Notes under the pieces: model-generated
Told to the model about the DNA's origin: nothing
The model's database searches: none
The model's input: only the letters and a program-made list of their open reading frames with translations
In this document: piece by piece, positions 1 through 35,027 of the stretch
Layout: each line of letters starts with the position of its first letter
Position numbering within the stretch: the stretch's first letter is position 1
Program-made: the position numbers and the translations under genes
Source of the DNA: Nemertoderma westbladi
Lineage: Eukaryota > Animalia > Xenacoelomorpha
Reading direction: 5' to 3'
NCBI GenBank assembly: GCA_032718475.1
Contig: JAUCBJ010002603.1
Location: 1-49,003 of the forward strand
DNA length: 49,003 bases

Positions 1-1461
1 GCAGTCAGTCAGTTTAGTCGTACAGATTTTTGAAAACCTTGTTAGAACCCATAGAACAATCGAGAATTTTCTCGATTGATTGCAGCACAAATTTGCTATA
101 TAAAGGTGCGATTTGTTCATTAGTTATTACAACCTACTTCACAGATTATCTTATCAATATTCTGTCGTGCTTAGTTTATTCTCAGATTACATTGTATTAT
201 AATTGTATCTTCTGTAATAAAGTCAGAATATTCTCTCAGCTTTTCTATCTGTTTTACCATGGATTCACTACGGTGAACAAACTCAGGGACAGGATGGCCG
301 GCTAGAGATCGGGCCGCAGCAATGAACGGGAACATCACGGGAATGTAGACGAGAGACAACCCGCAATACCATCTAGAGTTATTCGCCCATCGCCTGAAAG
401 GTTAGACAGCGTTCGATCCTTGCTACCTAAGTATAAGACCAAAAGATCAAAAGGTAGACGTAGTGACACGCTGTAAGCCCAAAATTACATCATAGGGACT
501 GTACTGTCTTGATTCAGGAAAACCCACAGTAGACCTTCACATTCCTACGGGAGGGAGAGAGCGCAGGCCGATACTAGTACGCAGATAAGACGTAGGCACA
601 CCGGTACAAGGCATACACATTGGTTAGGGTGCAGCAAACTGTACGCTTAACTCTTGCTAAGTACAGGTGCGTCTGTGACTATTTGCCGTGCAACGGTGTC
701 CATTACATCAGAACTTGTAGGCTAGGGGGGTTGCTGTGTTTTCACCTGAATTAGGATTGTACCGTTCAGGCGGTAGGGCAGTTTACGTACTAGGCGCAAA
801 TAAATTGAGGCTATCAGGGATATACTAACATCTACCGTGTCCCCGCCAACGCCCTAATAGGAAGTTACCCGGACTACCTGGGTGACTAAAATTCTAGATA
901 GGAGCCAGGATAGCTATTAGTACCCGTACGCCTACAGTAGTAAACTAACACATCTCTTCTTAGTATCAGGGACCTGGTACCTAAAATTGCCGAATTCTGG
1001 GCGTAGTATTAACCTTATGCCTGAATTTGAGGAAGGAGGAAAACTGTTTTTGACCGTTCAGAATTAACACACGCGCGTTAGAATTATTTACACCTCGAAA
1101 TATATAAAATTAACTTTGTCCGTACTGTGCTTTGCCCGCTAGTTAGACATCTCCAAATATCTGCCTGCACCTAGCTAGCGTCTCTTCGCCCAACCATATA
1201 AATCACACCGCGGCAAAGTATACGAGCCCCTTAGTCCGTCAGTGAGTCAGCCTGATTTTAGGATTCGCTGCGCGGGATTTTTGTTTTATCGAAGTTTGTC
1301 TGCTCGTAGACTGTTTTCTGCCTCACCGGTTATAAGAGATCGATACTGCAATATATTCGCTTGCTTAGAGTTTACTGTTTTGGTGAGAAGGTCGGATTTA
1401 TGATTTGATTTACAAACTTTACAGTAGGATATTGCAGGTATTGTTACCGTCTCTTCCAATA
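1..1461 (+). repeat. 5' LTR (left-truncated by the window edge)
   Basis: 33-1461 matches 14375-15916 apart from a 113-bp indel and one substitution that I could see; identity ends at ...CTCTTCCAATA. Contains TATA-like boxes (97, 1197) and AATAAA (216, 799). Inclusion of 1-32 is inferred. Confidence 0.88.
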
Positions 1462-1480
1462 GTAGGAATGTGTTTTACTG
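1462..1480 (+). other. Non-tRNA primer-binding site candidate (self-priming)
   Basis: GTAGGAATGTG (1462-1472) immediately follows the LTR and is the exact reverse complement of CACATTCCTAC (538-548); there is no TGG-led tRNA PBS at this position. Confidence 0.7.
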
Positions 1481-2062
1481 AACTACGGTTCGGTAGGACT
1501 AAAGTTATTTGAAAATTTTGTATTTTGAGGTAAAAATTCGTATTTGATTAGCTAAGTGCTAATTTTTTGAAATAAAATTTGATTTGAACCGCGTGTAAAA
1601 TATTTTTGGAATTGAATACCGGTGTTTAAAAGGGTTTAAATACCATATTGTACCGGTACAAAATTTTCGTAAAGTAAAACCTAACTCTTTTGTTTTTCAG
1701 GATTCAGAACTCATTTCTAGACTGTAACGGGAGCAAGACCGTGTTTAGCAAGTTTGGGAGATAGATAACCCAACAACTTTGGTTGGGAAAATCGCGTTTC
1801 GTCCGCAACGTTAAAAACGGAAAGGTTCACGTTCGGTTTGTATCTGGGAATCTGTTTTTCTGGAGAATTATTGGAGTGGGTGAGTTCGAAAAGTTGCATA
1901 AATAAGTTAGGCATTACCGTATTAGTTAAAATTATTGTGGGTTCCACTGTCTCAAGTATTTATGCATTCCGTACGATTTCTTTGTTCATTGCTGAATTAG
2001 TCCGTATTATTGTATTTAATTTACCTTTTGATAACGCATATCGTTATCCGATTTATTTGTTA

Positions 2063-2185
2063 TAAAATTGGCCGCTAGGCTAACTTTATTATATACTTAT
2101 TCCGTGACATTTATTTGCTGTAAAATTGGCCGTTTAGGCTAATTTTATCCATCTGCTATAAAATCGGCCGGTAGGCTAATTTTAT
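2063..2185 (+). repeat. Three imperfect copies of TAAAATTGGCCG..TAGGCTAATTTTAT in the 5' leader
   Basis: Copies near 2063, 2120 and 2159. Confidence 0.75.
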
Positions 2186-3285
2186 AAGACTGTAATTAGT
2201 ACCGTTTAGATATAAATACGGTAAAACTCGATACTTTGACACTCACTTTACTTGACTTACAACTACCGAAATGAGTGACAAACAAGACTATACAAAGAAT
2301 ACACCTACCGACTATGACTCGTGTGACGCGGATAAGTCAGCAGCGGAAGGACAACAGGGGAAGACTCGCGAGCCTACCGAACCTACACCGTGTGCGTCAC
2401 CAGTACATCCAACGGGAGTACCGGATGCCGTAGTACGAGGCGACGGCAGGACCGAGGACTTTCTAACTGTTCCGCAACCTAGATACAGGGAAACGGACAT
2501 GGTAAGTTCAGCAGGAAGCCAGGAAAGTGTGGTTAGAAGCGTCGGAGGTTACATGGCGCATATAACCAGGAGTATTGGAGAAGGTCATCGCATATTAGAC
2601 GAGTTGACCGCTCCGATGTCTCGATTCGAGTTCTACACCCTCCAGGTTAGAGTGCAAACTAGAGTACACAAGTCCGTAGATAACCTAGCTAATTGGTCTA
2701 CAAGATCTAGCTAGACAGAGACAGGACATGGACACTCAACTTAGAATCCTCGAGAAACTAATGATCGCTAGAGAGAAACTGATTCAGTTTAAGTCGACGA
2801 TTAGGCAGATACAACAGGAACAAGCAGACCAGTTGCTAGGTGAGTCAGTTTCGGACGAATTATTACAGCCCGAGGAAGAACAGGAACTGTACCGACTGGA
2901 TGGACAATTGAAACATCTGACGGACCACTTACGTATGTGCGGCGAGGATGTCGGAGATTGGGAAACCGTGCCGGAATATACGAGGGAAACTTCACCCGTA
3001 CGAATCGAATCGGCACCGGGAATACTGGACCAATCGTTAGTGAGTATTCGCAGCGAAATTGGCGAGATAAGTATAGTGACGTCAGAAATTTCCAGACAGC
3101 AACAACAAGTGGATAGACAACAACGGGAAGCGGAGGAACAAGCTCAACTGTTGACGGCACAAGCAGCGGTACAAGAAGAAAAACTACGCGTTGCGGATGT
3201 TGCAAGAATCTCTCATCTGCGAGAACAAGCCGAGTTGGAAGCGGCTGAGATGGAAAGGTTGGAGCTAGAAATAGCACAGCGAACA

Positions 3286-3384
3286 GCGGCAGCTGAGTTA
3301 GCGCAACAAGCGGCAGCAGCTGAGTTAGAACGACAAGCGGCAGCAGCTGAGTTAGAATGACAAGCGGCAGCAGCTGAGTTGGAA
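3286..3384 (+). repeat. 27-bp coding tandem repeat (AAAELERQA-like, 4 copies)
   Basis: Units of GCAGCTGAGTTAGAACGACAAGCGGCA; one unit has CGA changed to TGA. Confidence 0.9.
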
Positions 3385-4064
3385 GAACACAAGCGAGTTT
3401 CGGAAGCAAGAGCTGAAATGAAAAAACGGCAAATAAAGGCTCAATCAGCGATAAGACAAGCGGAGCTCGAAGCGCAACAACGACAGACGGAACAACGCGA
3501 GAAGGAAGTTAAACTTCATTTCGAACTCGGGAAGAAGGCGAGAGAATTAGCCAACGCGAAGGAAGATCTGGATCTACAAGCCCGCGATCGATCGATGAGA
3601 TCTCGAGACGGACACGATCTAGACCAGTTAGAGGTAAGACACCGCCAAATTCAGGAACGGAAGAAGGAAGGAAGCGTAGGAGCACCCGGACGGGAACGAC
3701 AATTAGTAAAGGACTTGTGTCAACGATTCCCACAGGTAACTCATATGTTTGCACCGGTTACGACTAAGGAACCTGTTTCGATTGCTGGTAGTAGTAATAT
3801 TTCTCCTATCCATGGTGCGACGGAACACAGGTTTGTTATTCCGGACAAGTTTACACCGCCAAGAGCAACGTCGTCGCCTATTCCGAAAGTCAAGGTAAGT
3901 AACCCACCGATTACAGATCGTAGTAGTTTATTAGTCGAACCTGTACTACTGACGACGAAACAGGTGAGTCCACCGTCGACACCTAAACCCGTTACACACT
4001 ACGCTTACCCAATGACGTTTAGGCCAACAAGGCCAGTTGTTTCAAATGCTGTCATTCGCCCACC

Positions 4065-4213
4065 GATCAACCAGTTTACATCGCAATCTACGACTTCGAG
4101 GAAGACTTGTGAGCCTACCGAACAACGGACACTAGTGGATACGCGACTGATCAACCAGTTTACATCGCAATCTACGACTTCGAGGAAGACTTGTGAGCCT
4201 ACCGAACAACGGA
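4065..4213 (+). repeat. 84-bp-period coding duplication (INQFTSQSTTSRKTCEPTEQR, 2 copies)
   Basis: About 65 identical nt at 4065 and 4149. Confidence 0.92.
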
Positions 4214-7200
4214 GATCAGTGGACGATGTTCCGAAACGGAATGTTAGAATTCGAACGACGCAACGAACGCGAGCACGTCGACCACCATATCCAGATGATA
4301 GTAGTACTTCGAGCGAATCGGATTACCCGAAACGCGAAGTATTTAGAACAGGGGCGGCCGATGGATATAAACGCGAGCGTTCAGACAACTCCTTTGTAGA
4401 TAATCCTCCACAGAATACACCAACACAAAAGGCGTTACAACCAACAGACGCGATCAGTACCCAACAGTTCGCCGACATCATGCGACCAGTTGTCAACAAG
4501 TTGGCTCAGATCGAGGAGCGTCTGGAGGAAGTTCAAACCGATAGTTCGAGGAACACCGAATTCGAACACAATAGACACCCGAAGGAACCACAAAGACCGG
4601 TACCTTCAAACCCCACATCGTATCAGGGAAAAGCGCCAAGAAGGGAGAACATCAACCAGACTACCAACCAAGGACGCGAAACTCTGAACGTTGCAGAGGA
4701 GATAGCGAAATTCGCAGCCAGACAGGGATTGCCGGTACAACAACCACCGAAGTTCTCCGGTAGCTCAAAACACTGGCATACCTTCGTAGACTATATCGAA
4801 TCCCAGATCGCCGTGTGCGCCTTTACATCACGGGAGAAGTTCAATTACCTGCTCCAAACGTTGTCAGGAGAACCTAAACGTTTGGCAGAGACCTTCGTTG
4901 GTGTACCGGACGCTTTCGAACTAGCGTACGATCGTTTAACTTCGATATACGGAGGTACAGTGAGCATGGCCAGGTCAGTAATAGAGGAACTCTGTAAGGG
5001 AGGGGCTATCACTAAACCCGTCGACTTACTAAAACTAGCTGACGAGATCAAGAACGCTATCACTACCTTAAGATCAATTGGACAACTTGATTACGGGAAT
5101 ACCCCTACAGTCCTATTAAAGATCATAGGACGACTCCACCATCGACTTCGTCGGGAGTGGAGAAAGGTCGAATACCAGCGAGAGGAGCGAGGAGGATTCC
5201 TAAAATTAGAAGATGTGTACATTTTAATATCCAGGGAGGCGGTAGTAGAAACTCGATCTAACTACACCGACCAGCACATCGTGGCAGAAGGGATCACATT
5301 GCCATCCTCCAACCGACAAAAACCCCAGACAACATCCACTAAGACGGCCACTTACACCACACCGACGGAATTACGACAATTCTCGGACGGAGGTAGGGTA
5401 TCTGCGCCCATTGGGACAAAACAAACGAGACAGCAACTTGGTACCGACTTCAGTGGCTGCCAATACTGCGAGCATCTAGGTAAGCGGTATATCGGCCACA
5501 AGTTACGAGGTTGTCGACAATTTCGCGAGTTGAACTCGGAAGAACGACGGCTGCAAATACGGCCACTGGACTCTTGTTGGCAGTGTACGCGACACGGACA
5601 CGTGCGTAAGGATTGCCCAAATACTGACACTTGTCCATCCTGTGGACGCAACCACGACGGTCTGCTCCACACAGACAGCCACACGCCGACGAAACGCTTC
5701 GCCAGGGAACACCCGGAAGCAGCAGCGAGATGTGATGCGGCCTATAGAAAACGAGAATCAAAAACGACTCCAACCTTCGTGACCCATATTGAGGATTGCT
5801 TCTCAGAACAATCCGGATCGTCGGACGAAGAATCAGAAGACGACGACGAATATTCTAATGGAGACGAACAACCGTCGATCGCGCTTCTGACCACTGATCA
5901 ACTGAAGGGATTCAGTGTAATCCCGATTAAGGTTACTGGCACAAAGGGGAGCAAGAGGATCTATGCGATTCTAGATTCAGCCTCATCTCATAGCTACGTG
6001 GACGAAAAGATAGCTGACGTCGTGACGGATCTAAAACAAGGTAAGCACGTCAGTTATACAGTAAGTAGTATGCACGGACAGCGTGCAATACCAGTGACGC
6101 GAGTTAAGTTGGACTTAGACTCTCTTCTTCCAAAATCGCAACACAGCGAGAGGGAGAGGTCTTTGTTGCCCTTTAGAGATCTAACCTTTGCGGCCACGAA
6201 GGACTTTAGTAACCTACTAGGTCCAGTGCCGGAACAATCTCTAGAGGACCGTAAGTATTTCAGACACCTTGGTGTACCCGAATGTCCTGTCAATTATAGA
6301 TCGGTAGCAATGCTGATCGGGACGGACCAATTCAACCTACATCAGGTGTGGGAAACCAGACCATCGGCAGTTGTAGCGGGAAACGCATACGCCTGCAGAA
6401 CGCCGATAGGGTGGTATACTCGAGCGCCTGTGCGCACACTAGACGTAAGTGACGAGGAAGACGATGTACAGAGTACATGTAGTTTATTAACTACAAATTC
6501 AATTCATTCCTTTTCACACGACGTGAACCATACTACACTACAGTCGACAAAACATGACAGACGTGTAACTAGTATGATAAGTCACAAGGAGCAGCTAACC
6601 CACAAGGTGAGTTTAGAACTTGGGGGGAAGACGAGTCAGCTAGAGATTCCATCGACGACAGATGATAGGCTTGCGAGTCTACCTACCCCAATAACCTCAA
6701 CAGTGCCCGTCGATATCGATGATGACGCGTTGAGAAATCATCAGTTGGAACAAGCCACCTTGGACAAAGAATTAACGGAGAAGACTATCAGGTGGTTAGA
6801 ACAAGATACAGCTGAACCTGGTAGCTATGAACCTTGTATGTCGGAACAGGAGAAACAATCTCTGAAGATCATGGAAGATACTATCCACCAGACGAAAGAC
6901 GGACATTATGAGGTAGGGATGTTATGGCGTAGCCAAAGTCCTAAACTTATAAACAACTATCCACTGGCTTTAAGACGTCTACACTCAATCCGACAACGTC
7001 TATTAAAAGACGAGAAAGCCCATCTGCAGTATAACACTCAGATGGAGACGTATTTGACAAAGGGATACGCTATCCGAATGACTAACCCGGAGCGAGTGAC
7101 CGACCAAACGTATTACTTGCCACATCACTACGTGAGACACCCCGACAAACCAGACAAAGTACGTGTAGTCAATGACTGTGCGGCTCTGTTTGAGGGAATG

Positions 7201-10200
7201 TCCCTCAATAGTGAGTTGATGGATGGACCGAACATGAATAATTATCTTATGGGGGTGATTATGCGCTTCCGTCAGCGTCAAGTAGCTTTTACTTGTGACG
7301 TTGAAGCGATGTTTCACCAAGTAAAAGCGTTAGAGCGAGACAGAGACAGTTTGCGGTTCCTCTGGTACCCGGAAGGAGATTTAAGTCTACCACCGGCGAC
7401 TTACCAAATGCAAGTTCGCGTTTTCGGTGCCAGAGACAGCCCAAATTGTACGATGTACGCCCTAAAGCAGGCCGCTAGGGATCAGAAACATCTATATGAC
7501 CCAGAGATAATTAGAATTGTGGAGCGTGACTTTTACGTTGATGACGGATTACAGAGTTGCGACACAGTAGAACGTGCTACAACAGTAGCACATCAATTAC
7601 GGGACTGCTTGGCGGGCGGAGGTTTTAACCTCACCAAATTCGCCTCAAACAGTGCCGAATTAGTAGACTCATTCGGAACTACTGAGCGTGGAGGTGGTGA
7701 CATAGACCTAGAGTTCGAACCACTACCGACGACTAAGGTGTTGGGGCTCTTTTGGGACCCAAACACAGACAACTTTCGAGTGAAGGTGAGACTGGACAGT
7801 CAAGGGAACACACTGACAAAGAGATCATGCTTGTCAAAATTGAGCCGATTGTTCGATCCGTTAGGATTCATCAGTCCAGTGATACTGCAAGCCCGCATTT
7901 ATATGCGCAGTATATGGAAGGATGGACTAACATGGGACGAGCCGATCTCATCAGACCAAGTGGACTTATGGAAGACCTGGGAGGCGGAATTATCTTCGCT
8001 AGAGGATTATTCCATACCCAGGGTTTACTTTCCATTACAAAGTACATTTCCTGACAACTTGGAACTACACTGTTTTTCTGACGCCAGTGACAACGGTTTT
8101 GGTGTGGCAGCGTACTTGCGCAGACAAGTAGAATCAGACGAGTTCGATGTTTCGCTCATTACTTCTAAGGCTAAGACCATGCCTACTAAGTATATGACGA
8201 CACCACGAGCCGAGCTACAAGCCGCAACCCTGTCAACCACCATCGTGAACCTCATACAGACAGAACTACAGTCGAGTTTACAGATATTTTATTGGACTGA
8301 CGCGACGTTGGTTTTATTTTACATAAACAACGACACACTCGAATTCAAGACATTCGTAGCTAACCGTCGCGCGGAAATTCTAGACCGTTCAATAAAAGAG
8401 GATTGGCGACATTGTCCCGGACCACAAAACCCAGCTGATATTGCGTCGCGAGGAATGATGCCTGAGGAATTCTGTAAACCGGAGAACAAAGAATTTTGGC
8501 AACACGGACCCCAATTCTTGCAGAAATCGACACAAGATTGGCCTCCGTTATACGACAACAAGTCCAACACCATTCCCAAGGACGCCGAAATCAAGAAACC
8601 AAAAAAGGGAAAGACAAAGAAAAGGACGACGGCGGTAAAACTCAAGAAAAAACCGAAGGCGAAATGGAAAGATATAACTTCAAAGGTCAAGAGAGGAAGA
8701 CTTGCGAGCCTTTCTACACCAGACATATCGCCAGACGGTCAACCAGACATGTTACTAGACAGCCAACCAGACATTTTGCCAGACATATCACAAAATGTCC
8801 CACCAGACGCTAGTAACACACTGACAAACAGTAAAGCCGCAGTTTCCCTATTGGAGCGGCCTTGTATTGACAAACTACCAATTTTGACACACTTGAGCAA
8901 CCATAAGCACGGTGAAACCTCATGTATTACAGATGTGGGTAGTACCTACGCTAATGTAAATACAGGTGTTACTCTGCGCTCAAGAGACATACCGAACTTG
9001 CAACCTATGGTGAGACCTGGGATTAATGTCGGCAGAAAAATAAGTTTACCGAAACCTGCTGACCCCATAGAGTTCAAACCACCATTAACGATCGACTTAC
9101 AAAGTACTGACGATCAAGGTAAGAAGACAAAGAAGGACAAATTACTTGTAGACCCGGACGGATCAACAGTCAACAAGGGAATACTTACCGGCGGACCCGT
9201 GGGCCCTTCTAGTAATTCAAAACCTTCCAAAATCTCCATTGACTTACCTGATGACGTCACAAATACTTACGTCGACCGTATTGTAAACCTAACAGAATCT
9301 TGGACAAACGCTTGCCGAAAATTAGCGTGGATTGTACGTTTTGTACAATACGTTAAAGGCAAACGCGACTTTACACGTCGACTTACATTGACTGAGATTG
9401 ACAGGTGTGAGATTAAATTAATTCGCCATTATCAACTGCGATATTTCGCGCGCGAATTCACATCTATAAATCAAGGTCAACCAATCAAGTCGTCACCAAT
9501 ACTGAGTTGGAGTCCGATAATTTATAATGGCTTAATTTGTCATAAATCTCGGCTTCAAAACATTGACTTTAACACGAACTTTAGGTACCCAATAATAATA
9601 CCGCAACACCACGAACTACAACGTGCAATGATACTGGACGCACATCTACATCTGAAACACGCTGGAAGACACCACTGTCTTTCCTACTTACGTACTAGAT
9701 TTGTATTAATTAGACCCAGTAAAGCATTAAGTTCAGTGACACGTACGTGTATTATTTGTAAAAAGGTACATTCTAGAATAGGTACCCAAGAAATGAGTGA
9801 ACTACCACAAGCACGACTTCAAGCATTCAGACCACCTTTTACAGAGACTGGAATTGATTGCTTTGGTCCCATACATACGAAACGTGGACGTATACTAGTA
9901 AAACGCTGGGGACTGATTTTCACATGTATGTCCAGTAGGGCAGTTCACATTGAACGTGTGATGGATCTTTCCACCAACGCGTTTATACTAGCACTGCGGC
10001 GATTTATCGCTAGACGCGGACTAGTAAAATGCTTGTACTCAGACCAAGGGACAAACTTTGTTGGTGCTCGGAATGAGATTGCTAGAGCCTTTAAGAAATT
10101 AGATCATGATCAAATCTCGAACGAACTACAACCTCACAAGATTGTTTGGAAGTTCAATCCTCCAGATAGTCCTTGGAGAGGCGGAGTCTGGGAGAGATTG

Positions 10201-11487
10201 ATTAGATCTATAAAGACAGCCATGGCAAAGGTCATTCCAGTAAACCACATATTAACAGACGACCAACTGACAACATTGTTTGTTGAAATCGAGGCAATAC
10301 TAAATACTAGACCAATAGTATTAGTACCCGATGACAAACAATCCCAGTTTGCTTTAACACCGGCACACCTGCTTATGCAGGCACCGACGACATTGACACC
10401 TATTTCTATTCCAATAGAAAGCGACAGTTACGGTAGAAAAGCGTGGAAAATCACGCAACTACTGGCTAACAAATTCTGGGAAATATGGCAAAACCATTAT
10501 TTGCCCTCTATTTCTGCCAGAACAACTTGGTATAATAACACCCGCGCATTAAAGCCGGGAGATCACGTGCTGTTGGCAGAAGTGAATCTAAAAAGACGCT
10601 TCTGGATAACAGGTGTCATTTTAGCCACACATCCATCTATGGATGGAGTGACAAGAACTGTGACGGTACGGACAATTGACGGTCGAACAGTAGACAGACC
10701 GACTCAACGTCTCGTACTTCTTGAAGAGACTCGTAACGAGTCTGGAGACTACAAATCTCCACCTAATACTAGTAAATAATTAGGAGTTTACAAATAGATT
10801 TCCACGTACCTGTACACCGTAGTAAGGACAGCGGTAGAATTCCATTGTCTTTATATGTGAACATTGAGGGTGGTACCCTTACGTGTCACATAGGAGCGGG
10901 ATTTGTAGGTATAAGAAATGGAATTCTACTTGGAACTCACAATATTGAGACATTTTCGAAATTTTAGACAATCCATTTGGATTTGAAAAATTTTTAAAAA
11001 ATTTTCTCCAGTGAATAGATTTCAGGGTACAGTCGGGTGGAACTTAAAATTAGAAGAAACAAGAGAGGAAGACTTGCGAGCCTTTCTTAAAAAATTTTTT
11101 AATTAAATTTTACACGGTCTTGTTTCAATAAGTTACGTCAAAATAGACTCCCCTATATTTATTTACTAATTCTTGACTGCTTATTTTCTGATAATAGTTT
11201 GGGATCAAAAAGTGAGTATTTTAGACTCACAGCCAGTTTAGCCCAAATTCGTTTTTATTTCGGCAAAAATTTTAGATAAGAAGCAGCGTGTCATTAAAGA
11301 AACCTTAGATCTTAGGCTATGGGTAGGAGGTTAGAGCGTTGTCGAAGCCCAAAAGGCAGACGAAACTCTCACGTCTCCTCACAACTAACCACAAACTCTG
11401 TTGTATTCCCTCTAGTAGTAATGATTATGTAACTACACCTCTAATTATGGAGAAAGGGATACAAGGAGAGCCGAGATGGGGATATGA

Positions 11488-13149
11488 TATCCAAGAGGAA
11501 GCGGCAGCTTCATTCGAACGATTTGGAGCAAAGGACTACACTATATTTGGTATAAAGGAATTATCAGAAAGTACAGCGAAGCTCGCAAAGACAGCAATGC
11601 CTTTACTCGAGCAGGATTTAGTATATTTCGAGACGTGTATCTTCGCTGTGCGGGATCTCTTATCGAAAGACCATCTATGTTTACATTGTTACCCTATGAA
11701 GGAGAACGTATCGTGGAGATTATGGATGAATCACGGCAGACGCGCGCGCCTATCGGTCACCTTGGTGATGAATTCGAAGTAACTACTACGATCGCCGACG
11801 ATCCTTTAGAGGAACTTCTTGAGATAGAAAGGAACCTCCCGAAGAAATCTCAGACGGAGATTCGACAACTTGAAGCAACAGATGCTATAGTTTGTATACA
11901 ACCTTCAGAAACCTACCAACCCATAGACCCAGATGATTACGATTATAGTATGGGAGGAAGCGCTCGACCGATTGGAGATCTTATATACGAACGAGTGTGG
12001 TACCCTGCCAATACGATGTGTAGTAAATGTGGCGTCGCTGGACATCATATGGCAAAGTGCAGTGGAAAGCACATTACTACGACTCAGCTAATCTGTGGAT
12101 GGTGTGGGGATCAAGGGTCTCATACCTTTTATACTTGCTGGAGATTTATGGCCCAATGTACTTATTGCAATATAAAGGGACATCGAGCATCTGAATGCCA
12201 ACTAAGAGACATACCTTATGAACACGAATCTGTAAAACTCGTGAGGAAGTTATTTGATGAGTGGGAAGATTTAGCCGACGAACATGTATCGGCACAAAGA
12301 AGACGGTTTCCGATGAGAGCGCATCTCGGATTTTGGGCGGTAAATCCTCAGACGATGATGTCGGAAGGATATATCTCCGCTATGCCCCAATATGACGAAC
12401 TTATCGAGGTTGTCGATATTTTGCCCCACGACAGCGGATTCCGAGTGGTGCGCGAGTATCTGTTACAAATTCACCCGGATAACAAAAACACGTGGAATTT
12501 TCAGAAAGTCGTTAATCGGATTACGTATGGTGAATTCGATCGTTTCCGAACTGAAAAGCGGAACAAGGGAGCTTGGTTAACCGTCGCATGGGCGTACCGA
12601 GCCGCGTTTTACCATAAACGTATACGAGCGAGCGTATTCGAGGAAGAGGAGGTCCTAGAGGCGACGAATATACCAGCCACTCCGGTTGCGCCGTCTGCAC
12701 GTCACCCTCGGGAGGACGGGCAGGGTAGGATCATACGGGTCCAGAAAGTGGGCCAACAGTTAAAGAAAATTATTAATGTAGAAGAACGCAAGGGAGTTGA
12801 GCCGACTATTCGAGTTACTCGGGATACGGTATCACTTCCAAGAGAACCAGTAGGAGGATCGGGACATACACCAGCTGATCAACAGGGGGCGCAAGCTACT
12901 CTTGGGTCTGCGTCGTCCACTTCTCGCGTGTTCCCAGACGTTTTACCAACTGTAGTGACAACTGATCGGTCACGAGGAATCGGTCGAGGTTTTGGGATGC
13001 CAAATAGACGAATTTGCGAGGAAATAGTCGCACCGTCTCTCAACGTCCCAAGTAAACCAGTGACTCGCCCCATTAGTCCCATATCGCGAGCAAAGTCACC
13101 TGTGCGCAGTTTTCGAGGACGCGGCAGGGCTCGATCAACTAAGCGATAA
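11488..13149 (+). CDS. Accessory ORF of the BEL element: triple CCHC zinc-knuckle protein with RG-rich tail (start uncertain)
   Basis: Frame is open from 11488 with first ATG at 11677; an overlapping ORF starts at ATG 11447 in another frame. Knuckles CSKCGVAGHHMAKC, CGWCGDQGSHTFYTC, CTYCNIKGHRASEC at 12019-12198; C-terminal RGIGRG and RGRGRAR. Confidence 0.85.
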   Translation, partial: YPRGSGSFIRTIWSKGLHYIWYKGIIRKYSEARKDSNAFTRAGFSIFRDVYLRCAGSLIERPSMFTLLPYEGERIVEIMDESRQTRAPIGHLGDEFEVTTTIADDPLEELLEIERNLPKKSQTEIRQLEATDAIVCIQPSETYQPIDPDDYDYSMGGSARPIGDLIYERVWYPANTMCSKCGVAGHHMAKCSGKHITTTQLICGWCGDQGSHTFYTCWRFMAQCTYCNIKGHRASECQLRDIPYEHESVKLVRKLFDEWEDLADEHVSAQRRRFPMRAHLGFWAVNPQTMMSEGYISAMPQYDELIEVVDILPHDSGFRVVREYLLQIHPDNKNTWNFQKVVNRITYGEFDRFRTEKRNKGAWLTVAWAYRAAFYHKRIRASVFEEEEVLEATNIPATPVAPSARHPREDGQGRIIRVQKVGQQLKKIINVEERKGVEPTIRVTRDTVSLPREPVGGSGHTPADQQGAQATLGSASSTSRVFPDVLPTVVTTDRSRGIGRGFGMPNRRICEEIVAPSLNVPSKPVTRPISPISRAKSPVRSFRGRGRARSTKR

Positions 13150-13267
13150 AAGGGAGGGCAAGGGTGGACGGAAGACTCGTGGGCCTTTCTTATGATTTTG
13201 TGATTTATTTTGAATTATATGTTTTATGTTTAGAAAATTTAGTAAAACTTATATTTTATATTTGTGC

Positions 13268-13800
13268 TTATTCCGAACTTATGCAATTTGTATTGTTCCG
13301 AATTTATGAAATTTAGAGAGTTTATATTTAGAAGGAACTTATATTTGAAAGATTTATGTTTCATATTTGAAGATGCAAAGGAGTTTATATTATTCTAAAC
13401 TTATGCAGTTTATATCTATATTTAGTAAGACTTATATTTGTAAGAATTTATATTTTATATTTGTGATTATTCCGAACTTATGCAATTTATATTATTCCGA
13501 ACTTATGCAATTTATATTGTTCCGAATATTATGCAATTTATATTTTATAAGCAGTATTTGTATTTACAGTGAAATAGAAAGTTTATAGATAGAAAATTTT
13601 GTGCTCAGAAAGACTCATATTTGTAATTATTCCAAACTTATGCAATCTACATTTAGGTACGAAAGTATTTGTAATTACTTGAATTTATGCAATATTTGAG
13701 ATGCAATAGTAGATGGAAGACTCGCGAGCCTTTCTTATTGTTTTCATTTATTTGTATTTGTAATTGTTTGAATTTATGCAATATTGAAATGCAATAGATT
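13268..13800 (+). repeat. Array of about 25-bp AT-rich units with core (TTCCG)AACTTATGCAAT
   Basis: About nine imperfect copies, e.g. near 13270, 13295, 13392, 13469, 13494, 13519, 13629, 13680 and 13770. Confidence 0.8.
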
Positions 13801-13901
13801 TATATTGGTGAATTTAATTTAGATTTATATTGTACTTACTTAGTAAAGCCTTAAATACGTAAAGTTTGAATTTGTAATTATTTTGTATCGAATCATTACG
13901 T

Positions 13902-13911
13902 AGAAAGGAAG
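13902..13911 (+). other. Polypurine tract candidate AGAAAGGAAG (alternative: 13148-13164 AAAAGGGAGGGCAAGGG)
   Basis: Directly followed by TATTG, the inverted complement of the LTR end CAATA. Confidence 0.5.
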
Positions 13912-15916
13912 TATTGTTTGAAATTTAATTGTAAATATGTAAGTACGCCCTAAGTATTCTATAGTTTGATTGATTATTGGTGAAAACCGTATATTTTATG
14001 CACGATAATATCCTGTTTTCATGGAGCGGTATAGAATTATATTCCCTAAATGCCGTGGATTTTCAAAATTTTATTTTATTCGAATTAACTTTGTAAAGAT
14101 TGCTTTGAGTTCTCATTAGTATTGGTTCTATCTATTGTACATCTATCGGTCAAGTGGTTCAGTAGCTCAGTTGGTAGAGCGTTGGAAATTATATGTGTAG
14201 TAGGTATTGAGTTCGAATCCTAGTAAGTGCGTATTATTTTTTGTGCAGAATTTCAACTCATTTAAATTAACCGCTACAAATTAATTGCATTTGTCTGTAC
14301 CAATGAGACTGTAGTTATTTGATTGTAACCAATGTCGTGCAAGTTATATATTAGCTGGACCAATAGCTATCTTTAAAACCTTGTTAGAACCCATAGAACA
14401 ATCGAGAATTTTCTCGATTGATTGCAGCACAAATTTGCTATATAAAGGTGCGATTTGTTCATTAGTTATTACAACCTACTTCACAGATTATCTTATCAAT
14501 ATTCTGTCGTGCTTAGTTTATTCTCAGATTACATTGTATTATAATTGTATCTTCTGTAATAAAGTCAGAATATTCTCTCAGCTTTTCTATCTGTTTTACC
14601 ATGGATTCACTACGGTGAACAAACTCAGGGACAGGATGGCCGGCTAGAGATCGGGCCGCAGCAATGAACGGGAACATCACGGGAATGTAGACGAGAGACA
14701 ACCCGCAATACCATCTAGAGTTATTCGCCCATCGCCTGAAAGGTTAGACAGCGTTCGATCCTTGCTACCTAAGTATAAGACCAAAAGATCAAAAGGTAGA
14801 CGTAGTGACACGCTGTAAGCCCAAAATTACATCATAGGGACTGTACTGTCTTGATTCAGGAAAACCCACAGTAGACCTTCACATTCCTACGGGAGGGAGA
14901 GAGCGCAGGCCGATACTAGTACGCAGATAAGACGTAGGCACACCGGTACAAGGCATACACATTGGTTAGGGTGCAGCAAACTGTACGCTTAACTCTTGCT
15001 AAGTACAGGTGCGTCTGTGACTATTTGCCGTGCAACGGTGTCCATTACATCAGAACTTGTAGGCTAGGGGGGTTGCTGTGTTTTCACCTGAATTAGGATT
15101 GTACCGTTCAGGCGGTAGGGCAGTTTACGTACTAGGCGCAAATAAATTGAGGCTATCAGGGATATACTAACATCTACCGTGTCCCCGCCAACGCCCTAAT
15201 AGGAAGTTACCCGGACTACCTGGGTGACTAAAATTCTAGATAGGAGCCAGGATAGCTATTAGTACCCGTACGCCTACAGTAGTAAACTAACACATCTCTT
15301 CTTAGTATCAGGGACCTGGTACCTAAAATTGCCGAATTCTGGGCGTAGTATTAACCTTATGCCTGAATTTGAGTCCTGGAAATACGCAAGAGGGGAAGGA
15401 ACCTTATCATTCGTGAGTATTGGACCTACAAGTTATAAAATTAGAATATTCGTAAAATGCACACCGTACCCAGTAATTATATATGTGAAGGAGCAAAACT
15501 GTTTTTGACCGTTCAGAATTAACACACGCGCGTTAGAATTATTTACACCTCGAAATATATAAAATTAACTTTGTCCGTACTGTGCTTTGCCCGCTAGTTA
15601 GACATCTCCAAATATCTGCCTGCACCTAGCTAGCGTCTCTTCGCCCAACCATATAAATCACACCGCGGCAAAGTATACGAGCCCCTTAGTCCGTCAGTGA
15701 GTCAGCCTGATTTTAGGATTCGCTGCGCGGGATTTTTGTTTTATCGAAGTTTGTCTGCTCGTAGACTGTTTTCTGCCTCACCGGTTATAAGAGATCGATA
15801 CTGCAATATATTCGCTTGCTTAGAGTTTACTGTTTTGGTGAGAAGGTCGGATTTATGATTTGATTTACAAACTTTACAGTAGGATATTGCAGGTATTGTT
15901 ACCGTCTCTTCCAATA
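13912..15916 (+). repeat. 3' LTR (start inferred; demonstrable identity 14375-15916)
   Basis: Direct repeat of 33-1461 with an extra 113 bp at 15374-15486. Start inferred from the PPT and TATTG...CAATA termini. Confidence 0.8.
14156..14242 (+). promoter_or_regulatory. tRNA-derived Pol III cassette (A box, B box, T6 terminator); not a functional tRNA
   Basis: TAGCTCAGTTGGTAGAGC (14163-14180, intact D arm), GAGTTCGAATCC (14209-14220), TTTTTT (14237-14242). Acceptor and anticodon stems do not pair. Confidence 0.75.
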
Positions 15917-16686
15917 ATTATCTTATTTTTCTTTTTCCGCAAGGAAAAAAAATCAATACTCTTATGGATTACTTTTTTCATTTTCATTATTCATTTCCTC
16001 ACGATTTTGGGGTATAAAAGTTTTTAAAAATGTTCTGGAAAAATAGTTTTTTCAACTGTTGACAGCAACTTGTTGGTGGACTCCTTCACACACAGAAAGT
16101 TTTGTTGCGAATTGTTTCTGAGTGTATCAAATCAACATATTGTTGACCCCCTTGCAAGGAGCAATTTTAGTTGCAGAAAAAAATTGCAGAAACGAAAGTT
16201 GCTCCGCGTGAGGAAAACCTGAAATAATATTAAAATTATATTATATCTTCAGTGTGTATTATAATGATAATGATAATATTTGGAATGTCGCGGTGCGATA
16301 TAATGTTGGGAAATATCGGGCGATTTGGTAGTGCGAAATTAATTCCCTACAAAATAAATAATATAAATTTTAAATTAGTATTATTATTTTATTTTATATT
16401 TTTATGTGGAATTGATATGATAATATTAAATTTCCCATTGATGTTTGTTTCAGAATTATAATAGTTGCACATTTTGATTAGATAGCAACTTTTAACTTTG
16501 TTTGTTTTCATAAAAAATTATACTTAAATGATGCTCGGTTTTAGTAAAAAAATAAAATGTTATTCTCAAATTGCTACTTTTTCGCCCGTGTCTACCTCAA
16601 AATCAAGATGAAAAGGGAGTAGAAAAGAAAATGTAACACATATTATAGCATTGATTTTACTCTTTTCGGAGTAATAATAACTAATT

Positions 16687-16824: not shown

Positions 16825-16858
16825 GTTGTTTTACTGATTACTTAACAAGATGTATATA

Positions 16859-17730
16859 CACCATGAACCGTAATATAGTGTCATTTTCTGATGACACGGA
16901 CCCCCCCCCCCCCCCCCAGATTTTTCTACAAATCTTTATCATATTGCTTAAAATTTGAAACATAAACTCGTTCCACTCACCGTCGATAACCCAATGAAGC
17001 CGGAATTTTCGATTTTGACTTCCGTATCGTGGACATACTTCACATTAGTCGTAATTTTTTCATATCAATAGAAAGCTTGAGTTGCAAGGATTCGAAATAT
17101 GTAACAATATCTGAATTTCGTTGAGAAACAACTGAGATACAGGAGTTCAAAGATTGCAAGAAGTATTGTTCGCTGCAGGCCATTTATTCTATTAAATAAA
17201 TACACAAAATTCTAGAATGTGTTATTTATTTTATAAGTTGGTTGGCAACAGCGGTATTCCTCTATACAATATATCTATTGTGTAGCTATTCATTCTTAAA
17301 CAAATTGTTCCAGAACATCGTGTATTTATTAAATAGGAATAAATGGCCTCCCGCGAACGATAATTCTTGCAATCTTTGAACTCCTATATCTCAGTTGTTT
17401 CTCAACGAAATTCAGATATTGTTACATATTTGTAATCCTTGCAACGCAAGCTTTTTAATGATATTACTTATAATTAATTACGAATAATGTGAAGAATGAC
17501 CACGATACGGAGGGTGCGATTTCGCAAAAGATACTTAAATACGCTTATAAAAAAATTTAAAGTCAAAAATCGAAAACTCCGGCTTCATAGTAACAACGAC
17601 GGTGAGTTCAACTAGTTATGTTTCAAATTTTAAGCAATATGATAAAGATTTGTAGAAAAATCTGGGGGGGGGGGGGGGGGGGGGGGGTCCGTGTCATCAG
17701 AAAATGGACACTATATTACGGGACATGATG
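16859..17730. mobile_element. Palindromic MITE with TA target duplication (Tc1/mariner-type)
   Basis: Inverted arms of about 360 bp including poly-C/poly-G tracts; TA at 16857-16858 and 17731-17732. Confidence 0.85.
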
Positions 17731-17740
17731 TATGTAGGAC

Positions 17741-20700
17741 ATGTATTCTTTTTGCCTCATTGAAACATCTGTAGCTGAAACGCACTACAACCTCCTTCAA
17801 CTATATCCCAATACTTCAACAAACGATTCATTCCCGGTCGCGCTTATTAAGTTGGTTGCGGAGCCATTAGCGCGTCACTTAACGTACTTAATAAACTTAG
17901 CTGTTACTACAGGTGAATTCCCTGCTAGTTTGAAGATGTCTAAGGTTATTGCAAGCTACAAAGGGGGTGACCCTCTTGATGCCAATAACTACCGGCCCAT
18001 ATCCATTTTGCCTGTGTTCACAAAATTGTACGAAAAAATAATCTACGACCAGCTTATTTCTTACCTGGATCACTTTTCAATTCTCACCAAATGCCAGTTT
18101 GGATTTCGAAAGAAAGTTTCAACTTACTGCGCTATTTTAATTGTGACTGAGAAAATTCGTACTTTTCTTGATTCGAAAGAAACCAGCTGCGCGATATACA
18201 TTGACCTGAAAAAGGCGTTTGATGCGCAGGACCACAGTATATTAATTAAAAAACTCAAAAATTATGGTATTCGTGGAACTCCTAATGCGTTAATAAAAAG
18301 CTTTCTAACCGAACGTAAGCAGGTCGTAGTGATAAATGATTACAATTTCTGACCCACTATCTTTAACCCTATTAGTACCGGGCTATAAAATGTTGTACAA
18401 ATACCGGGGGGGGGGGGGGGTCATATTGACCCCCCCCCCCCCCCCCCTCTAAAATCTACAAATATTTACGAAAACGTCTGATTTTTTGTTTGTACGTAGG
18501 TATCACTTGTCTGGATCCGACCGAAAAAAAAAATTTTCGAAAAAATGTACTGGGGTGGTTATATTGCAGCACCAAAATTACAAGTAGTGCACAATTTTCA
18601 CAAAATTTGAAAGTTACATTTTCGGCTAATTATTTTTCAATACAGGTTTTTTGGGGTGCATAATACATTGGAAAATATTTAAAAATGATATGATTACTAT
18701 AAATGGCTGTTTAGTCCTCTCTGCGTAGGAAAAAAATGAAAAAAACAAGTAACCAGCACTTTTCAGTTAGAACTCAAAATTTTTAATTCACTTATACGAT
18801 GCTATAAATTTACATTTTCAGGTTTTCGAGGGCGCTGATTCTAATGTAATACATTTCTAATATGCCAGATCATTGCTACTTGTATTTTTCGGCGTAATTT
18901 GGCAAATTTTGGTGCTAGCACCAAATTTCGTACCCATCACCAAAAAGTACAAGTTTGCGATGTCCAGTGCTGTTTTTATTGATTCCATCGGATTCAGGAC
19001 CCTCATAAACCCGTATAACGCAAGAAACAAGGTGATACTATCTACTTATCAATTTGCATATTTTCCAAAATTTGGTGCTGGCACAACAATTTTCACCCAC
19101 CGGCGAAAAATACAAGTTTGAGAACTCTTATGAAATTTTTACTGATTCCATTGAATTCAGAACCATCACAAACCCGTATAACGCAAGAAACAAGGTGACA
19201 CAATCAATTGATATATTTGATGGTTTTCAAAATTTGGTGCTAGCACCACATTTTGCACCCACATCCGAAAAATACAAGTTTGAGATGTCTAGTTCGATAA
19301 TTATATTTTCCATTGAATTCAGAACAGCCATAAACCTCTAAAACGCAAGAAATAAATTGTCACAAGCAATTTTATATATTGAATGGATTTTCAAAATTTC
19401 GTGCTAGCACCAAAATTTGCACACAGCACCGAAAAATACAAGTTTGATACGCTTGGTGCAACTTCGTATATATTTCATCGAATCCAGAACCCCAAAAAAC
19501 CCCAATTGCGTAAAAAACAAGTTTCAAACAATCAATTTACAAAATTGACTTATTTCAAAATTTGGTGCTGGCACCAAAATTTGGCACCCATCGAAAAAAA
19601 CAAGTTTGAAATTTCTAAATCAATTTATATGAATTCCATCCAATTTCTAACACCAAAAAACCGGTGTAAATCAAAAATAGAGATGTTACAATTCATATTT
19701 AATGAAATGTAATTTTCAAAAAACGTCTCAAAAAAAGTGCCAAAAGTAGGGTTAAAAAATGGTGCTATAACTCGAAAAGTACCCAATATTTTTGAAAACG
19801 GTTTTCACTACCATGAAGACAATAGATTTTTAGGAAAAGTCATAAAATTTCAGATTCCCAACTGCGTTTGTTTCAGAATTATAATAAAAAAACCACGGGG
19901 GGGGGTCATATTGACCCCCCCCCCCCCCGGGTTTAATAGGGTTAAAATGTGGTACTGTACAAGGATCCGTGTTATCTCCGTTATTATTTTTACTATATAT
20001 AAATGACCTGCCGTTAGTATCCAAATTTATGACAACCCTTTTTGCAGATGACACCACCTTGCTGCATAACGATTCCAATATTGAATTATTAATTGAATCT
20101 TCAAATAGTGAACTCAAAAAAATATATGAATGGCTGGCCGACAATCGACTGTCTCTGAACTTAAAAAAAACCGAGTACTCAATTTTTACGAACAAAAATT
20201 ATTTCCTAGATGGCCTACCCAAAGTTAAAATTAAAGACAATATTATAAAGAAAGTAGAGTGTACAAAGTTTTTAGGTGTCTGGATAGATGATAAGCTTAA
20301 CTGGAAAATACACATTGGGCATATTTTAAAGAAAATTAGTAAAAGCACTGGGATATTTTATAAATTACGACATATTTTTCCGACAGACATACTTCGTACA
20401 CTTTACTTCACACTGATCCATCCATACTTAACATATGGAATTTTGGCTTGGGGTTCGGCATGTAAGAGCGATTTAATGAAAATTAAAACCAAAACTAATA
20501 AAATTATCCGTGCTATCACTTTTAGCCATTTCCGCCAAACAGCTTATCCCCTATATAAAACAATGAATATACTACCTTTGGAGTCACTACCGGTATATGT
20601 CTATCATGTTTCCCAACTATTGCTAGACATATCACATAACCCCTCACACCCTCTCTCGCACCTTTTTACAAAATGTTCTGCCATGCACCGATATAGTACC

Positions 20701-21396
20701 CGTGCGGCTTTGACAGGAAAATATGTTATTCCCCTAACCCGTTTAGAAGTAGCTCACAAATCGATCGGAGTAATAGGACCGACTATCTGGAATGATCTCC
20801 CAACTGACATTAGAGCAATAAAATCAAAAGCCATATTTTTAAAGCACCTTAAGAAATATTTACTCGATAAACTCTGATTAAGTTTTTTTGCTTATGAATC
20901 ACTCAAGTTAATACATGTAGTAACTACAAATCTATTTTATTAAACAAATACAGCACTCCCATATCTGTTTACTTTCATTAACCAGGTGGAAATTATTAAG
21001 CTTTAACAAATGTATATGAATATATAAATTACTCTAGATACAAATTATATTCTACAATAAAAACTACTACAAAGCAGAGTATTACGCATATATGGTAAAT
21101 TTTCATAATATATTCTTAACTTATATGTCTTAGAATAATTGTGCAATTTATTTCTTTGTGATACACTTTGCCCTCTTTGTACAACAGATGACCTTGACTA
21201 GCATTACGCTACTGCCAGCTGTTGTACGACAAATTATTTAGCATAAAGGTGCAGCGCAACCAAACATATGTATGTAGTAGGCCTACAAACGTAGTGTATA
21301 ATTATAATATGAAAGCTCTGTTTTGGTGGTGGCTGCAGGTTTATGCCGTTATATGTATTGAATCTTATATTATAATAATAAATTGAATTGAATTGT
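17741..21396 (+). mobile_element. 5'-truncated CR1/L2-group LINE, split by a piggyBac-type insertion
   Basis: NYRPISIL, QFGFR, DLKKAFD in 17741-18352. After removing the insert it reads LSLKCGTVQGSVLSPLLFLLYINDL..LFADDT (to 20877). 3' end AATAAA followed by (TTGAA)n. Confidence 0.92.
18367..19941. mobile_element. Non-autonomous piggyBac element
   Basis: TTAA on both sides (18363-18366, 19942-19945); CCCTATTA...TAATAGGG termini; subterminal Gn-TCATATTGA-Cn palindromes; internal tandem units of about 164 bp; excision restores the LINE RT sequence. Confidence 0.93.
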
Positions 21397-24582: not shown

Positions 24583-24692
24583 ATAAATTGATAAATAAAA
24601 ATCAATAATTGATCAATCAATCAATAAATTTTGCTCAAAAATGTTTTTTTACTTGAAATTCAAATTCTACATAAAAATTTAAGTCAGAATAT

Positions 24693-26163
24693 GTGGCTGG
24701 TTGCGAGAAAAGGGACCTGGGGAAAAAATTTTCATTCTGAGAAAAACGCGTTTAAAGTTTGGCTCTTAAAATCGACTGTTTTCATTGGTTTATTGGTCGT
24801 TATTGGGGTGTTTGCATTGGTTTATTGGTCGTTATTGGGGTGTTTGCATTGGTTTATTGGTCGTTATTGGGTTTTATTAGAGCGAAATTCAAACTGAATT
24901 ATTTTAATAATAGTACTAAGTACTGTATACACTTGTTTTTTTAGATTATCGTAGAATATCTGTAGCCTATTCGGTTAGTAATTGTACAAACAAGTTAATA
25001 CACTAATAATTTAGAATTTATTATGGAAACTGAAGCAGAGTGGCTGAACCTATTAAATAATAGGGTTTTCAGGTCGCTGATCACGATAAAACTTGTTAAA
25101 ATATTTTTTGAAAAAGCAACCATAATTTTTTGTGGTATTTGGGTCCCCCAGTATGAAAAGTACAAGTAAAAAAATCTCAAAATAAAAAAATTTGTGTTTG
25201 ATTTGCTAATGCTGAACGTACGTGTTTTCGAGGTCGCTGATTACGATGAAATTAGTTATAAATATTCCTAGTAATGCAAACCCAATTTTGGTGCTATTCT
25301 AGTGCCCCAGAACGAAAATTACAAGTTGCACAAACTTATAAACTGTCAAATTATGCCTTTGGTTTGGTAATGCTGCTTCTATACTGGTTTTCAAGGTAGC
25401 TGATCACGATACAACACGTTACAAATCATTCGTGGTAACGCAACTGTCAATTTTGGTGCTTGTCTGGTGGGACGAAAATTACAAGTAGCAAACATTTCAA
25501 ATTGCAAAAAGCGAATTTGGTTGGATAATACGATATTTTTTAGTGTCATATTCGTGATCAGTGTCCCAGAACACCCATAATGTCCAAAATTCAGGTTGAT
25601 TTGGTAATGATTTTTGGTTATCAAACTTTTGCTACTTGTATTTTTCGTGCCGCACATTGACACATATCGAAAAAATTGTTTTAATTCGTGATCAGCATTC
25701 CAAAAAAACCATATGTTCATAAAATCAATTAAATTTTGTGGTGATTTTTCATTATCATATTTGCACTACGATTTTTTTCGTGCCCCATGGACCGCATTAA
25801 AATTACCAAAAATTTTCTAGAATGTTATATTTGAGTTCAATATTTGTGATCATTGTCCAAAAAAAAACGCTATAGCGCAAATATATTAATCTTAGTGAAT
25901 TATAAAAACATTTGAAAATTTTAGCACGAAAAATACCTGAGATGGATGCCAGAAATGGACCACATCAAAAAATTAACATTGGTTGCGAGAAAAGGGACCT
26001 GCGTTTTTAATTTTTTGTTTAAACACTCATAACTTTTTAACGAAAAGCGATATGAAAAAACTAGTTCGATATTCGGAAAGCCCACAAAATTCTGCATCTA
26101 ATAGGCCTAAAAACGCAAATTCGACCATGTGGTCCCCAGGTCCCTTTTCTCGCAACCAGCCAC
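24693..26163. mobile_element. Non-autonomous TIR element with ATAT flanks (Sola1-like; superfamily tentative)
   Basis: 31-bp TIR GTGGCTGGTTGCGAGAAAAGGGACCTGGGGA; ATAT on both sides; partial internal TIR copy at 25980. Confidence 0.75.
24783..24872 (+). repeat. 32-bp tandem repeat, about 3 copies (CATTGGTTTATTGGTCGTTATTGGGGTGTTTG)
   Basis: Directly visible in the sequence. Confidence 0.92.
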
Positions 26164-26398
26164 ATATGTAAAAATTATTTTTAATTATGAACTATTGTAC
26201 AAATCAATTATTTAATAAATAAATTGATCAAAATCAATAACTAATTTGAAAAAAATTAAAAATCATCCAGAAATTCGGAATCTACAGATAATTTTGTGTA
26301 AGAAAAGTAAAATGGACATTTCTGAATAAAACTTTCAATTTTTCAAATTTTACGGAGCATTGGCCCACACTTATTTTAAAGCACTGGGCTGGAAAGGG

Positions 26399-34840: not shown

Positions 34841-35027
34841 TATCTGGTATAGGCCTAATTTCAATATCCGCTCAGGCCATATACATTATTTATAAATTAA
34901 CACAAAATTAATAATTTCGGTAGGCTAAATCAAAATGTAAAAGGTGAAGAATATTAATAAATAAATACAGTAACAAGTTCTCCTAAACAATTACGCATAC
35001 TTCGATGATGACGCTTGATGGAACATA

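Follow-up and report, generated by a model that had tools for sequence, protein, structure and literature searches.

A zinc-knuckle gene and repeated RNA hairpins in a BEL/Pao retrotransposon of Nemertoderma westbladi: a possible Rev-like regulator of unspliced RNA

The nuclear exit of unspliced RNA is known for few retrotransposons with long terminal repeats (LTRs). In the excerpted text of a study of Cer1, a Ty3/Gypsy element of C. elegans (PMC10309623), the protein CERV is encoded in the env position, expressed by splicing and cysteine-dependent, and it is needed for the export of unspliced RNA. Here we analyse a 49,003-nt contig of Nemertoderma westbladi (JAUCBJ010002603.1; this whole stretch is the window, and coordinates refer to its forward strand unless stated otherwise), of which bases 33-15916 are a BEL/Pao LTR retrotransposon. 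Between integrase and the 3′ LTR, this element carries an open reading frame (ORF-B) for a protein with three zinc knuckles. ORF-B is a conserved accessory gene of the BEL/Pao family to which the element belongs, and we tentatively think that its product regulates the unspliced RNA.

ORF-B differs from CERV in several respects. According to the same excerpts, CERV has a C4 loop, whereas ORF-B has three CCHC knuckles. Here the splice donor lies before gag, no exons are seen to be shared with Gag, two frames overlap and a distinct hairpin can be seen to recur. Export has been shown for CERV; for ORF-B it is a predicted function. General homologue searches gave no match to the H, M and G domains of CERV, no direct pairwise comparison being made. 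With the retroviral Rev/Rex-type adaptors, which that paper (PMC10309623) also treats, the locus shares an accessory protein made from spliced RNA, an arginine-rich stretch and a candidate RNA element situated mostly in the intron. It differs from them in having about 500 residues with knuckles, nine dispersed small hairpins in place of one large element, and export-signal patterns that are not above chance.

Judged by its gag-pol, the element is a member of BEL/Pao, atypical in size, LTR ends and apparent priming. The profile of the virus taxonomy committee ICTV (PMC8742986), according to which BEL/Pao replication is poorly understood, gives genomes of 4.2-10 kb, LTRs of 0.2-1.2 kb and tRNA priming as typical features; the present element is about 15.9 kb long with LTRs of 1.9 kb, and has neither a tRNA-type primer site nor a membrane protein in its third ORF. 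The gag-pol domain order, the Pfam set and the position of the third ORF are shared with those Belpaoviridae that have env-like third ORFs. Such elements include roo, Tas and Cer7/13. Both the ICTV profile (PMC8742986) and the excerpted text of de la Chaux and Wagner give only env-like third genes for BEL/Pao, and in the excerpts of Llorens 2009 accessory genes are named in other families. In bdelloid rotifers, a paper available as excerpts (PMC5408684) describes family-specific non-envelope ORF3s, typically from spliced messages; those of Juno, Vesta, TelKA and Mag are of DEDDy, GDSL, coiled-coil or membrane types, and no knuckle array appears in these excerpts.

At the level of features there is a weak resemblance to CNBP and Air1/2, in which tandem CCHC knuckles are likewise joined by short linkers. 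CNBP has an RGG box, and Air has five knuckles. ORF-B shows no significant sequence match to either, just three knuckles, no RGG box and an extra orphan helical domain, and we rejected its identity as a CNBP/Air homologue. Our literature search found no knuckle ORF in BEL/Pao; Repbase, GyDB and subscription papers lay outside this search, and the slash spelling may have been missed in part. Extra ORFs are common, and this one stands out because an orphan knuckle protein comes together with a candidate site that can be seen and that covaries. Most third ORFs of obscure function offer no testable target. The element studied here has both a candidate RNA-binding protein and a covarying 20-nt candidate site, and thus the idea is directly testable by a binding assay and a reporter. 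If true, Rev-like control built from zinc knuckles would have an independent origin in one more retroelement family.

The zinc-knuckle gene

ORF-B is open for 553 codons from stop to stop (11488-13149), in the −1 frame relative to an overlapping ORF of 111 codons (ORF-A, 11447-11782), while none of 1000 shuffles gave a frame of more than 187 codons. Coding probably starts somewhere from 11530 to about 11720, and counted from its first ATG (11677) the frame has 490 codons. The knuckles lie at 12019-12060 (CX2CX4HX4C), 12094-12138 (CX2CX5HX4C) and 12157-12198 (CX2CX4HX4C). Intact frame, overlapping ORF and knuckle patterns had all been described in the original prediction, which our analysis bears out in these points. 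Even one knuckle was found in just 0.015% of 20000 shuffled proteins; the third matches Pfam zf-CCHC with E 0.0039, which is below the Pfam cut-off. Next comes an orphan domain (12205-12657), aromatic and predicted to be helical, on which purifying selection is strong, and then a low-complexity basic tail (12670-13146) with S/T-P sites and an arginine-rich end. This tail is rich in Pro, Ser, Thr and Gly and has a net charge of +12 over its last 70 residues. It had been called RG-rich; basic and of low complexity it is, but RG dipeptides number only four and RGG is absent. In ORF-B the hydropathy maximum over 19 residues is 0.78 (1.07 in ORF-A), N-glycosylation sequons are absent and the cysteines are almost all within the knuckles. 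From the hydropathy maximum and the lack of sequons we conclude that ORF-B has no signal peptide or membrane segment, in agreement with the earlier view of a zinc-knuckle protein rather than an envelope.

Copies of the element were compared through contigs from four public runs (X1, X3, X4 and X5). The median depth of the ORF relative to gag-pol was 1.15 in X1 and 1.12 in X3, both of them DNA runs, such depth not being a copy number. All ten indels listed fall outside 11441-13195, crowded in the spacer before and in the untranslated region (UTR) after. Forty of the 76 substitutions are listed: nine lie outside either frame, seven where the two frames overlap and 24 in ORF-B alone (after 11782). 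Of these last 24, 20 leave the amino acid unchanged, where 32% would be expected to do so (p 3e-7), as do all 15 of those listed within the knuckles and the helical core (12019-12660). This points to purifying selection, and we are highly confident that the knuckle gene is real and selected. In the present copy the reading frame of gag shifts near 2689-2714 and meets a stop at 3358-3360; the extra frame stays open.

No homologue of ORF-B was found among 7999 candidates or among 26 shorter ones, longer proteins lying outside the word-index search. Viral and metagenome contigs contained none, NCBIfam gave no match, and the best hit in the PDB had E 0.85. Among 1.84 billion representatives there were two matches, both knuckle-only and to Gags of other retroelements (E 1.5e-7 and 2.6e-4). 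An NCBIfam match of ORF-A to VOC was discarded as noise, since it scored 15.8 bits where the cut-off is 391. Single-sequence structure models were poor, with a predicted local distance difference test (pLDDT) of 34 and 41. A search by ESM features returned fungal CCHC proteins, including CNBP/Air2-like clusters, at 0.79-0.89, values that below 0.9 serve as leads only; the helical domain alone gave no usable match. As related BEL loci we took the best 80 of 395 (539 kb, 36-43% identical), 17 of which have at least 2 kb after integrase. Nothing in these 80 loci resembled ORF-A or ORF-B beyond Gag knuckles at E≥0.03. Knuckle-bearing ORFs follow integrase in five of them, all Gag-type. One locus (L070:5397-6293) has a 299-codon frame about 220 nt past integrase, without Pfam match, knuckles or likeness to ORF-B.

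Splicing, protein start and repeated hairpins

We observed a splice joint in one X4 contig (depth 211), in which 1879 is joined to 11416. The intron removed is of the GT..AG type, is 9536 nt long and spans all of gag-pol. Its donor is GG/GTGAGT at 1880-1885, and its acceptor, with a branch-point-like CTAAC and a pyrimidine tract, lies at 11385-11415. A spliced subgenomic RNA had been predicted, with GTGAGT at 11212, CTAAC at 11385 and CCCTCTAG ending at 11415, and junction reads had been suggested as the check. All three signals are located there. The acceptor is indeed the one in the joint, but the donor is that at 1880 instead of 11212, for which no joint is among those listed. A spliced RNA that removes gag-pol, as would be expected of a Rev- or CERV-like system, was thus found in a single contig from a single run. 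Neither X1 nor X3, both far deeper than X4, has it among its listed joints, nor does X5, which is presumed to be an RNA run and has sparse coverage, none of the nine runs listed being on record as RNA. The 8 joints listed include no GT..AG joint for a second intron within the ORFs; 13 further joints lie outside the listings, which leaves room for a second acceptor. X4 depth rises about hundredfold toward the 3′ end and drops after the donor, which suggests that this run, although labelled as possible DNA, is poly(A) RNA. Were X4 DNA, the joint would stem from a copy that had been spliced and then inserted again, and splicing would still be implied.

ORF-A begins 31 nt past the acceptor in a strong start context, its front is under purifying selection, and the first strong ATG past the acceptor is its own. 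A three-codon upstream ORF (11421-11432) stands between acceptor and ORF-A start and could tune the choice of ATG. At 11500-11530, four of the five listed substitutions are synonymous in ORF-A and none of the five in the long frame. Since selection follows ORF-A here, the front of the 553-codon frame is taken as non-coding, contrary to the original assumption of a single, simply initiated protein across more than 500 codons. Changes at 11723 and 11772 are non-synonymous in both frames, milder in ORF-B. The offset between ORF-A and ORF-B is kept in the contigs that cross the overlap, so it is not private damage. ATG 11722 and ATG 11950 were rejected as starts, being poor and variable among copies.

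A candidate switch region (11594-11620) contains a weak second acceptor ending at 11614 and a slippery-like heptamer (11614-11620) in the frame of ORF-A, identical to the pro-pol site of mouse mammary tumour virus. Three start routes are candidates. A −1 shift at the heptamer could yield a product of about 567 residues, use of the weaker second acceptor could be followed by the first ATG of ORF-B (11677), or translation could re-initiate. None of these is established, because a minor variant in X3 lacks the stretch 11590-11707. In this variant 19 other bases replace the 118, which keeps the frame of ORF-A and closes the front of ORF-B. One X4 contig diverges at the same place, and two divergent X1 contigs that start at 11695 have net gaps of 3 and 6. 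If the divergent X3, X4 and X1 contigs are one lineage, ORF-A and ORF-B may form a single frame there.

A 20-nt hairpin motif occurs nine times on the sense strand of the element; its antisense strand has none, nor do the other 33 kb of the window. Six copies lie in the intron: 2359-2378, 4100-4119 and 4184-4203 (the latter two sharing an 84-nt duplication), 8695-8714 and 9190-9209 inside pol (the latter with two compensatory pair changes), and 11067-11086 in the non-coding spacer. The seventh (11735-11754) is in the ORF-A/ORF-B overlap, and the eighth and ninth (13170-13189 and 13715-13734) are in the 3′ UTR; the leader and the LTR have none. In the predicted fold, a stem of five pairs is followed by an A-C mismatch, two more pairs and a loop of the form YGYG. 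This fold pairs 93% of cells, compared with 80% for a rejected alternative with a 4-nt bulge; at two of its pairs both partners change, and its covariation score is equalled in 3 of 500 shuffles. One of the double-sided changes (columns 11-24) lies outside the search pattern. Because the hairpins occupy two different reading phases and also occur outside coding sequence, we conclude that they are kept as RNA. The segments 8688-8715 and 11060-11087, each with a hairpin, share 28 identical bases although they are 2.4 kb apart and only one is coding, and this suggests copying within the element. None of the 80 related BEL loci has the motif, and Rfam gave no match at E≤1 over window positions 1-16000.

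Possible roles of the knuckle protein

An element with a working donor ahead of gag and an acceptor past pol has to bring its unspliced RNA through nuclear retention, a problem that Cer1 solves with CERV. For this reason we favour, as a tentative reading held at somewhat less than even confidence, that the knuckle protein is an accessory RNA-binding regulator of unspliced RNA that would work like Rev or CERV. Its three knuckles would likely bind the repeated hairpins of the element; in the excerpted text of PMC7599994, the nucleocapsid knuckles of HIV-1 and Rous sarcoma virus bind guanines of tetraloops. We hypothesize that the element splices by default, excising all of gag-pol. The spliced RNA would exit the nucleus normally and be translated from the ORF-A ATG with a −1 shift, or from 11677 after the second acceptor. 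The basic tail would carry the protein into the nucleus, where the knuckles could hold on to guanines in the YGYG loops (the intron is marked by six such loops), and the orphan helical domain could oligomerise or recruit a host export or stabilising factor. Full-length RNA would thereby reach the cytoplasm for Gag-Pol synthesis and packaging. As Gag retains its own fingers, the knuckles are not a replacement nucleocapsid. It is tempting to go further and propose a complex BEL/Pao element with its own Rev-like circuit, in which an orphan triple-knuckle protein, produced by splicing plus recoding or a second acceptor, reads nine dispersed, covarying tetraloop hairpins as a code that runs through gag, pol and its own gene, in an element with self-priming and TAT..ATA ends; taken as a whole, this picture is doubtful.

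Several points weigh against a Rev- or CERV-like regulator. The partner of the hairpins could be Gag, or a protein of the host. ORF-B has three export-signal patterns, compared with a mean of 4.9 in shuffles, and none of the homologue searches revealed sequence likeness to Rev or CERV. The hairpin pattern was derived from its own matches, and the three of nine hairpins that also occur in spliced RNA would be needless for a pure intron marker. The slippery heptamer is weak, since 29% of shuffles give one and the downstream stem, with z from −0.46 to +1.12, is no more stable than in shuffles, and the minor X3 variant (depth 491) has neither heptamer nor ATG 11677. Finally, the splice joint is one contig, with a short side of 29 nt where the tool advises caution at 30-31 nt, from a run labelled 'DNA?'.

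Among the alternatives, the one that survives best, although unlikely, is an anti-silencing or decoy factor that, Air/CNBP-like, would shield the element RNA from TRAMP/exosome or small-RNA pathways. In its favour, the family is young and abundant and the hairpins are on both RNA forms. The fungal CCHC look-alikes, with their CNBP/Air2-like clusters, also speak for it, but their scores all stay below 0.9 and are accounted for by the knuckles alone. Moreover, the feature search with the helical domain alone gave no usable hit, and the homologue searches produced no sequence match to a host protein.

Quite unlikely in our opinion is a second, free nucleocapsid-like chaperone, which would fold the long leader, anneal the self-primer or aid RNA packaging in the cytoplasm. 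Its attraction is that the element appears self-primed, judging by base complementarity, in contrast to the tRNA priming given for the family. The primer-binding-site position (1462-1472), directly after the LTR, is not of the TGG tRNA type. It pairs perfectly with the 11 nt at 538-548, the predicted self-primer and RNA 5′ end; pairing stops at exactly 11 nt, a result equalled by 1 of 5000 shuffles. This length is that of the Tf1 self-primer. Such a pair is what self-priming calls for in the excerpted text of PMC6317226, and in our literature search on self-priming no title among the papers listed concerned BEL/Pao. Knuckles and a basic tail would suit an RNA chaperone, and the two best library matches are Gag knuckle arrays. 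Nevertheless, Gag already has three fingers, leader and LTR have no hairpin, and the strongly conserved helical domain of 150 residues would be left unexplained.

It is improbable that the hairpins are packaging or dimer signals bound by Gag and unrelated to the ORF, which would then act on host RNAs or otherwise. G-rich tetraloops are classic nucleocapsid sites, as far as the excerpted sources go, and the only tie between ORF and hairpins is that both are peculiar to the family, none of the 80 related loci having either. However, packaging signals should be limited to unspliced RNA, yet three hairpins are in the spliced form, and one of them lies inside the gene's own start region.

The original prediction had named a one-off captured host fragment, or the gag of a nested element, without a role in the family, as what would overturn it, and we find this very improbable. 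The only sequence matches are knuckle arrays of other retroelement Gags, and the knuckle ORFs after integrase in five related loci are Gag-type. One-off capture is nonetheless ruled out by a depth like that of gag-pol, the lack of listed indels in the ORF and the synonymous excess (20 of 24), and nested gag by the absence of a capsid or protease Pfam match and of a bounding repeat, again with depth equal to that of the host element. Splicing from the element's leader and the shared hairpins argue in the same direction. A distant descent of the knuckle ORF from a Gag knuckle array stays conceivable. A highly diverged envelope or fusogen, suggested by the position and the env-like splicing pattern, is scarcely credible given the low hydropathy of both ORFs, the missing sequons and cysteines that are nearly all in knuckles, barring an unseen exon with signal peptide and anchor.

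Other features of the element and the window

The gag-pol (2271-10779) matches Pfam DUF1759, Peptidase_A17, Integrase_H2C2 (an integrase zinc domain) and DUF5641, and so has the DUF1759, Pao peptidase/RNase H region, integrase and DUF5641 that define gag-pol in BEL/Pao. It has 997 relatives at E≤1e-30, with integrase identity of 38-45% among the matches listed. Its own nucleocapsid has three fingers, at residues 700, 739 and 758 of the translated frame, the last being a CCHH finger. A three-finger Gag with a terminal CCHH finger is a hallmark of BEL/Pao. A low-complexity insert (about 8500-9250) between RNase H and integrase contains two of the hairpins. A peak of X4 depth lies just upstream of its A-rich stretch, as expected of internal oligo-dT priming.

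The 5′ LTR (33-1461) is truncated at its start, lacking 113 nt of the 3′ LTR, and X4 contigs enter other flanks behind 1461. The start of the 3′ LTR (14030-15916, about 1.9 kb) is suggested by a purine run before 14030 and a loose X4 end at that position. The termini are apparently TAT (14030-14036) and ATA (15910-15916), not TG..CA. The two LTRs agree in 1428 of 1429 aligned bases, the 113-nt gap aside, and hence the insertion is very young. A tRNA-like piece in the 3′ LTR (14138-14232; A-box 14163, B-box 14209), called by ARAGORN only at a lowered threshold and together with a second doubtful call, is a possible RNA polymerase III promoter or insulator. The leader holds a strong branch point and acceptor (1681-1700). 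Sites resembling donors lie at 1242, 1382 and 1436; there may be an intron in the leader, and no joint for it is among those listed. The 3′ UTR (13237-13800) is A/T-rich and carries variable repeats of 25-100 nt that differ between copies.

Elsewhere in the window, an uninterrupted amidase frame of 533 codons lies on the reverse strand (33284-34885; Pfam Amidase, E 2e-109). Reverse-transcriptase fragments of other retroelements are found at 19915-20877, 28772-30238 and 36657-37511, and inverted-repeat elements at 16850-17740, 24689-26167, 26399-27373 and 39244-39726.

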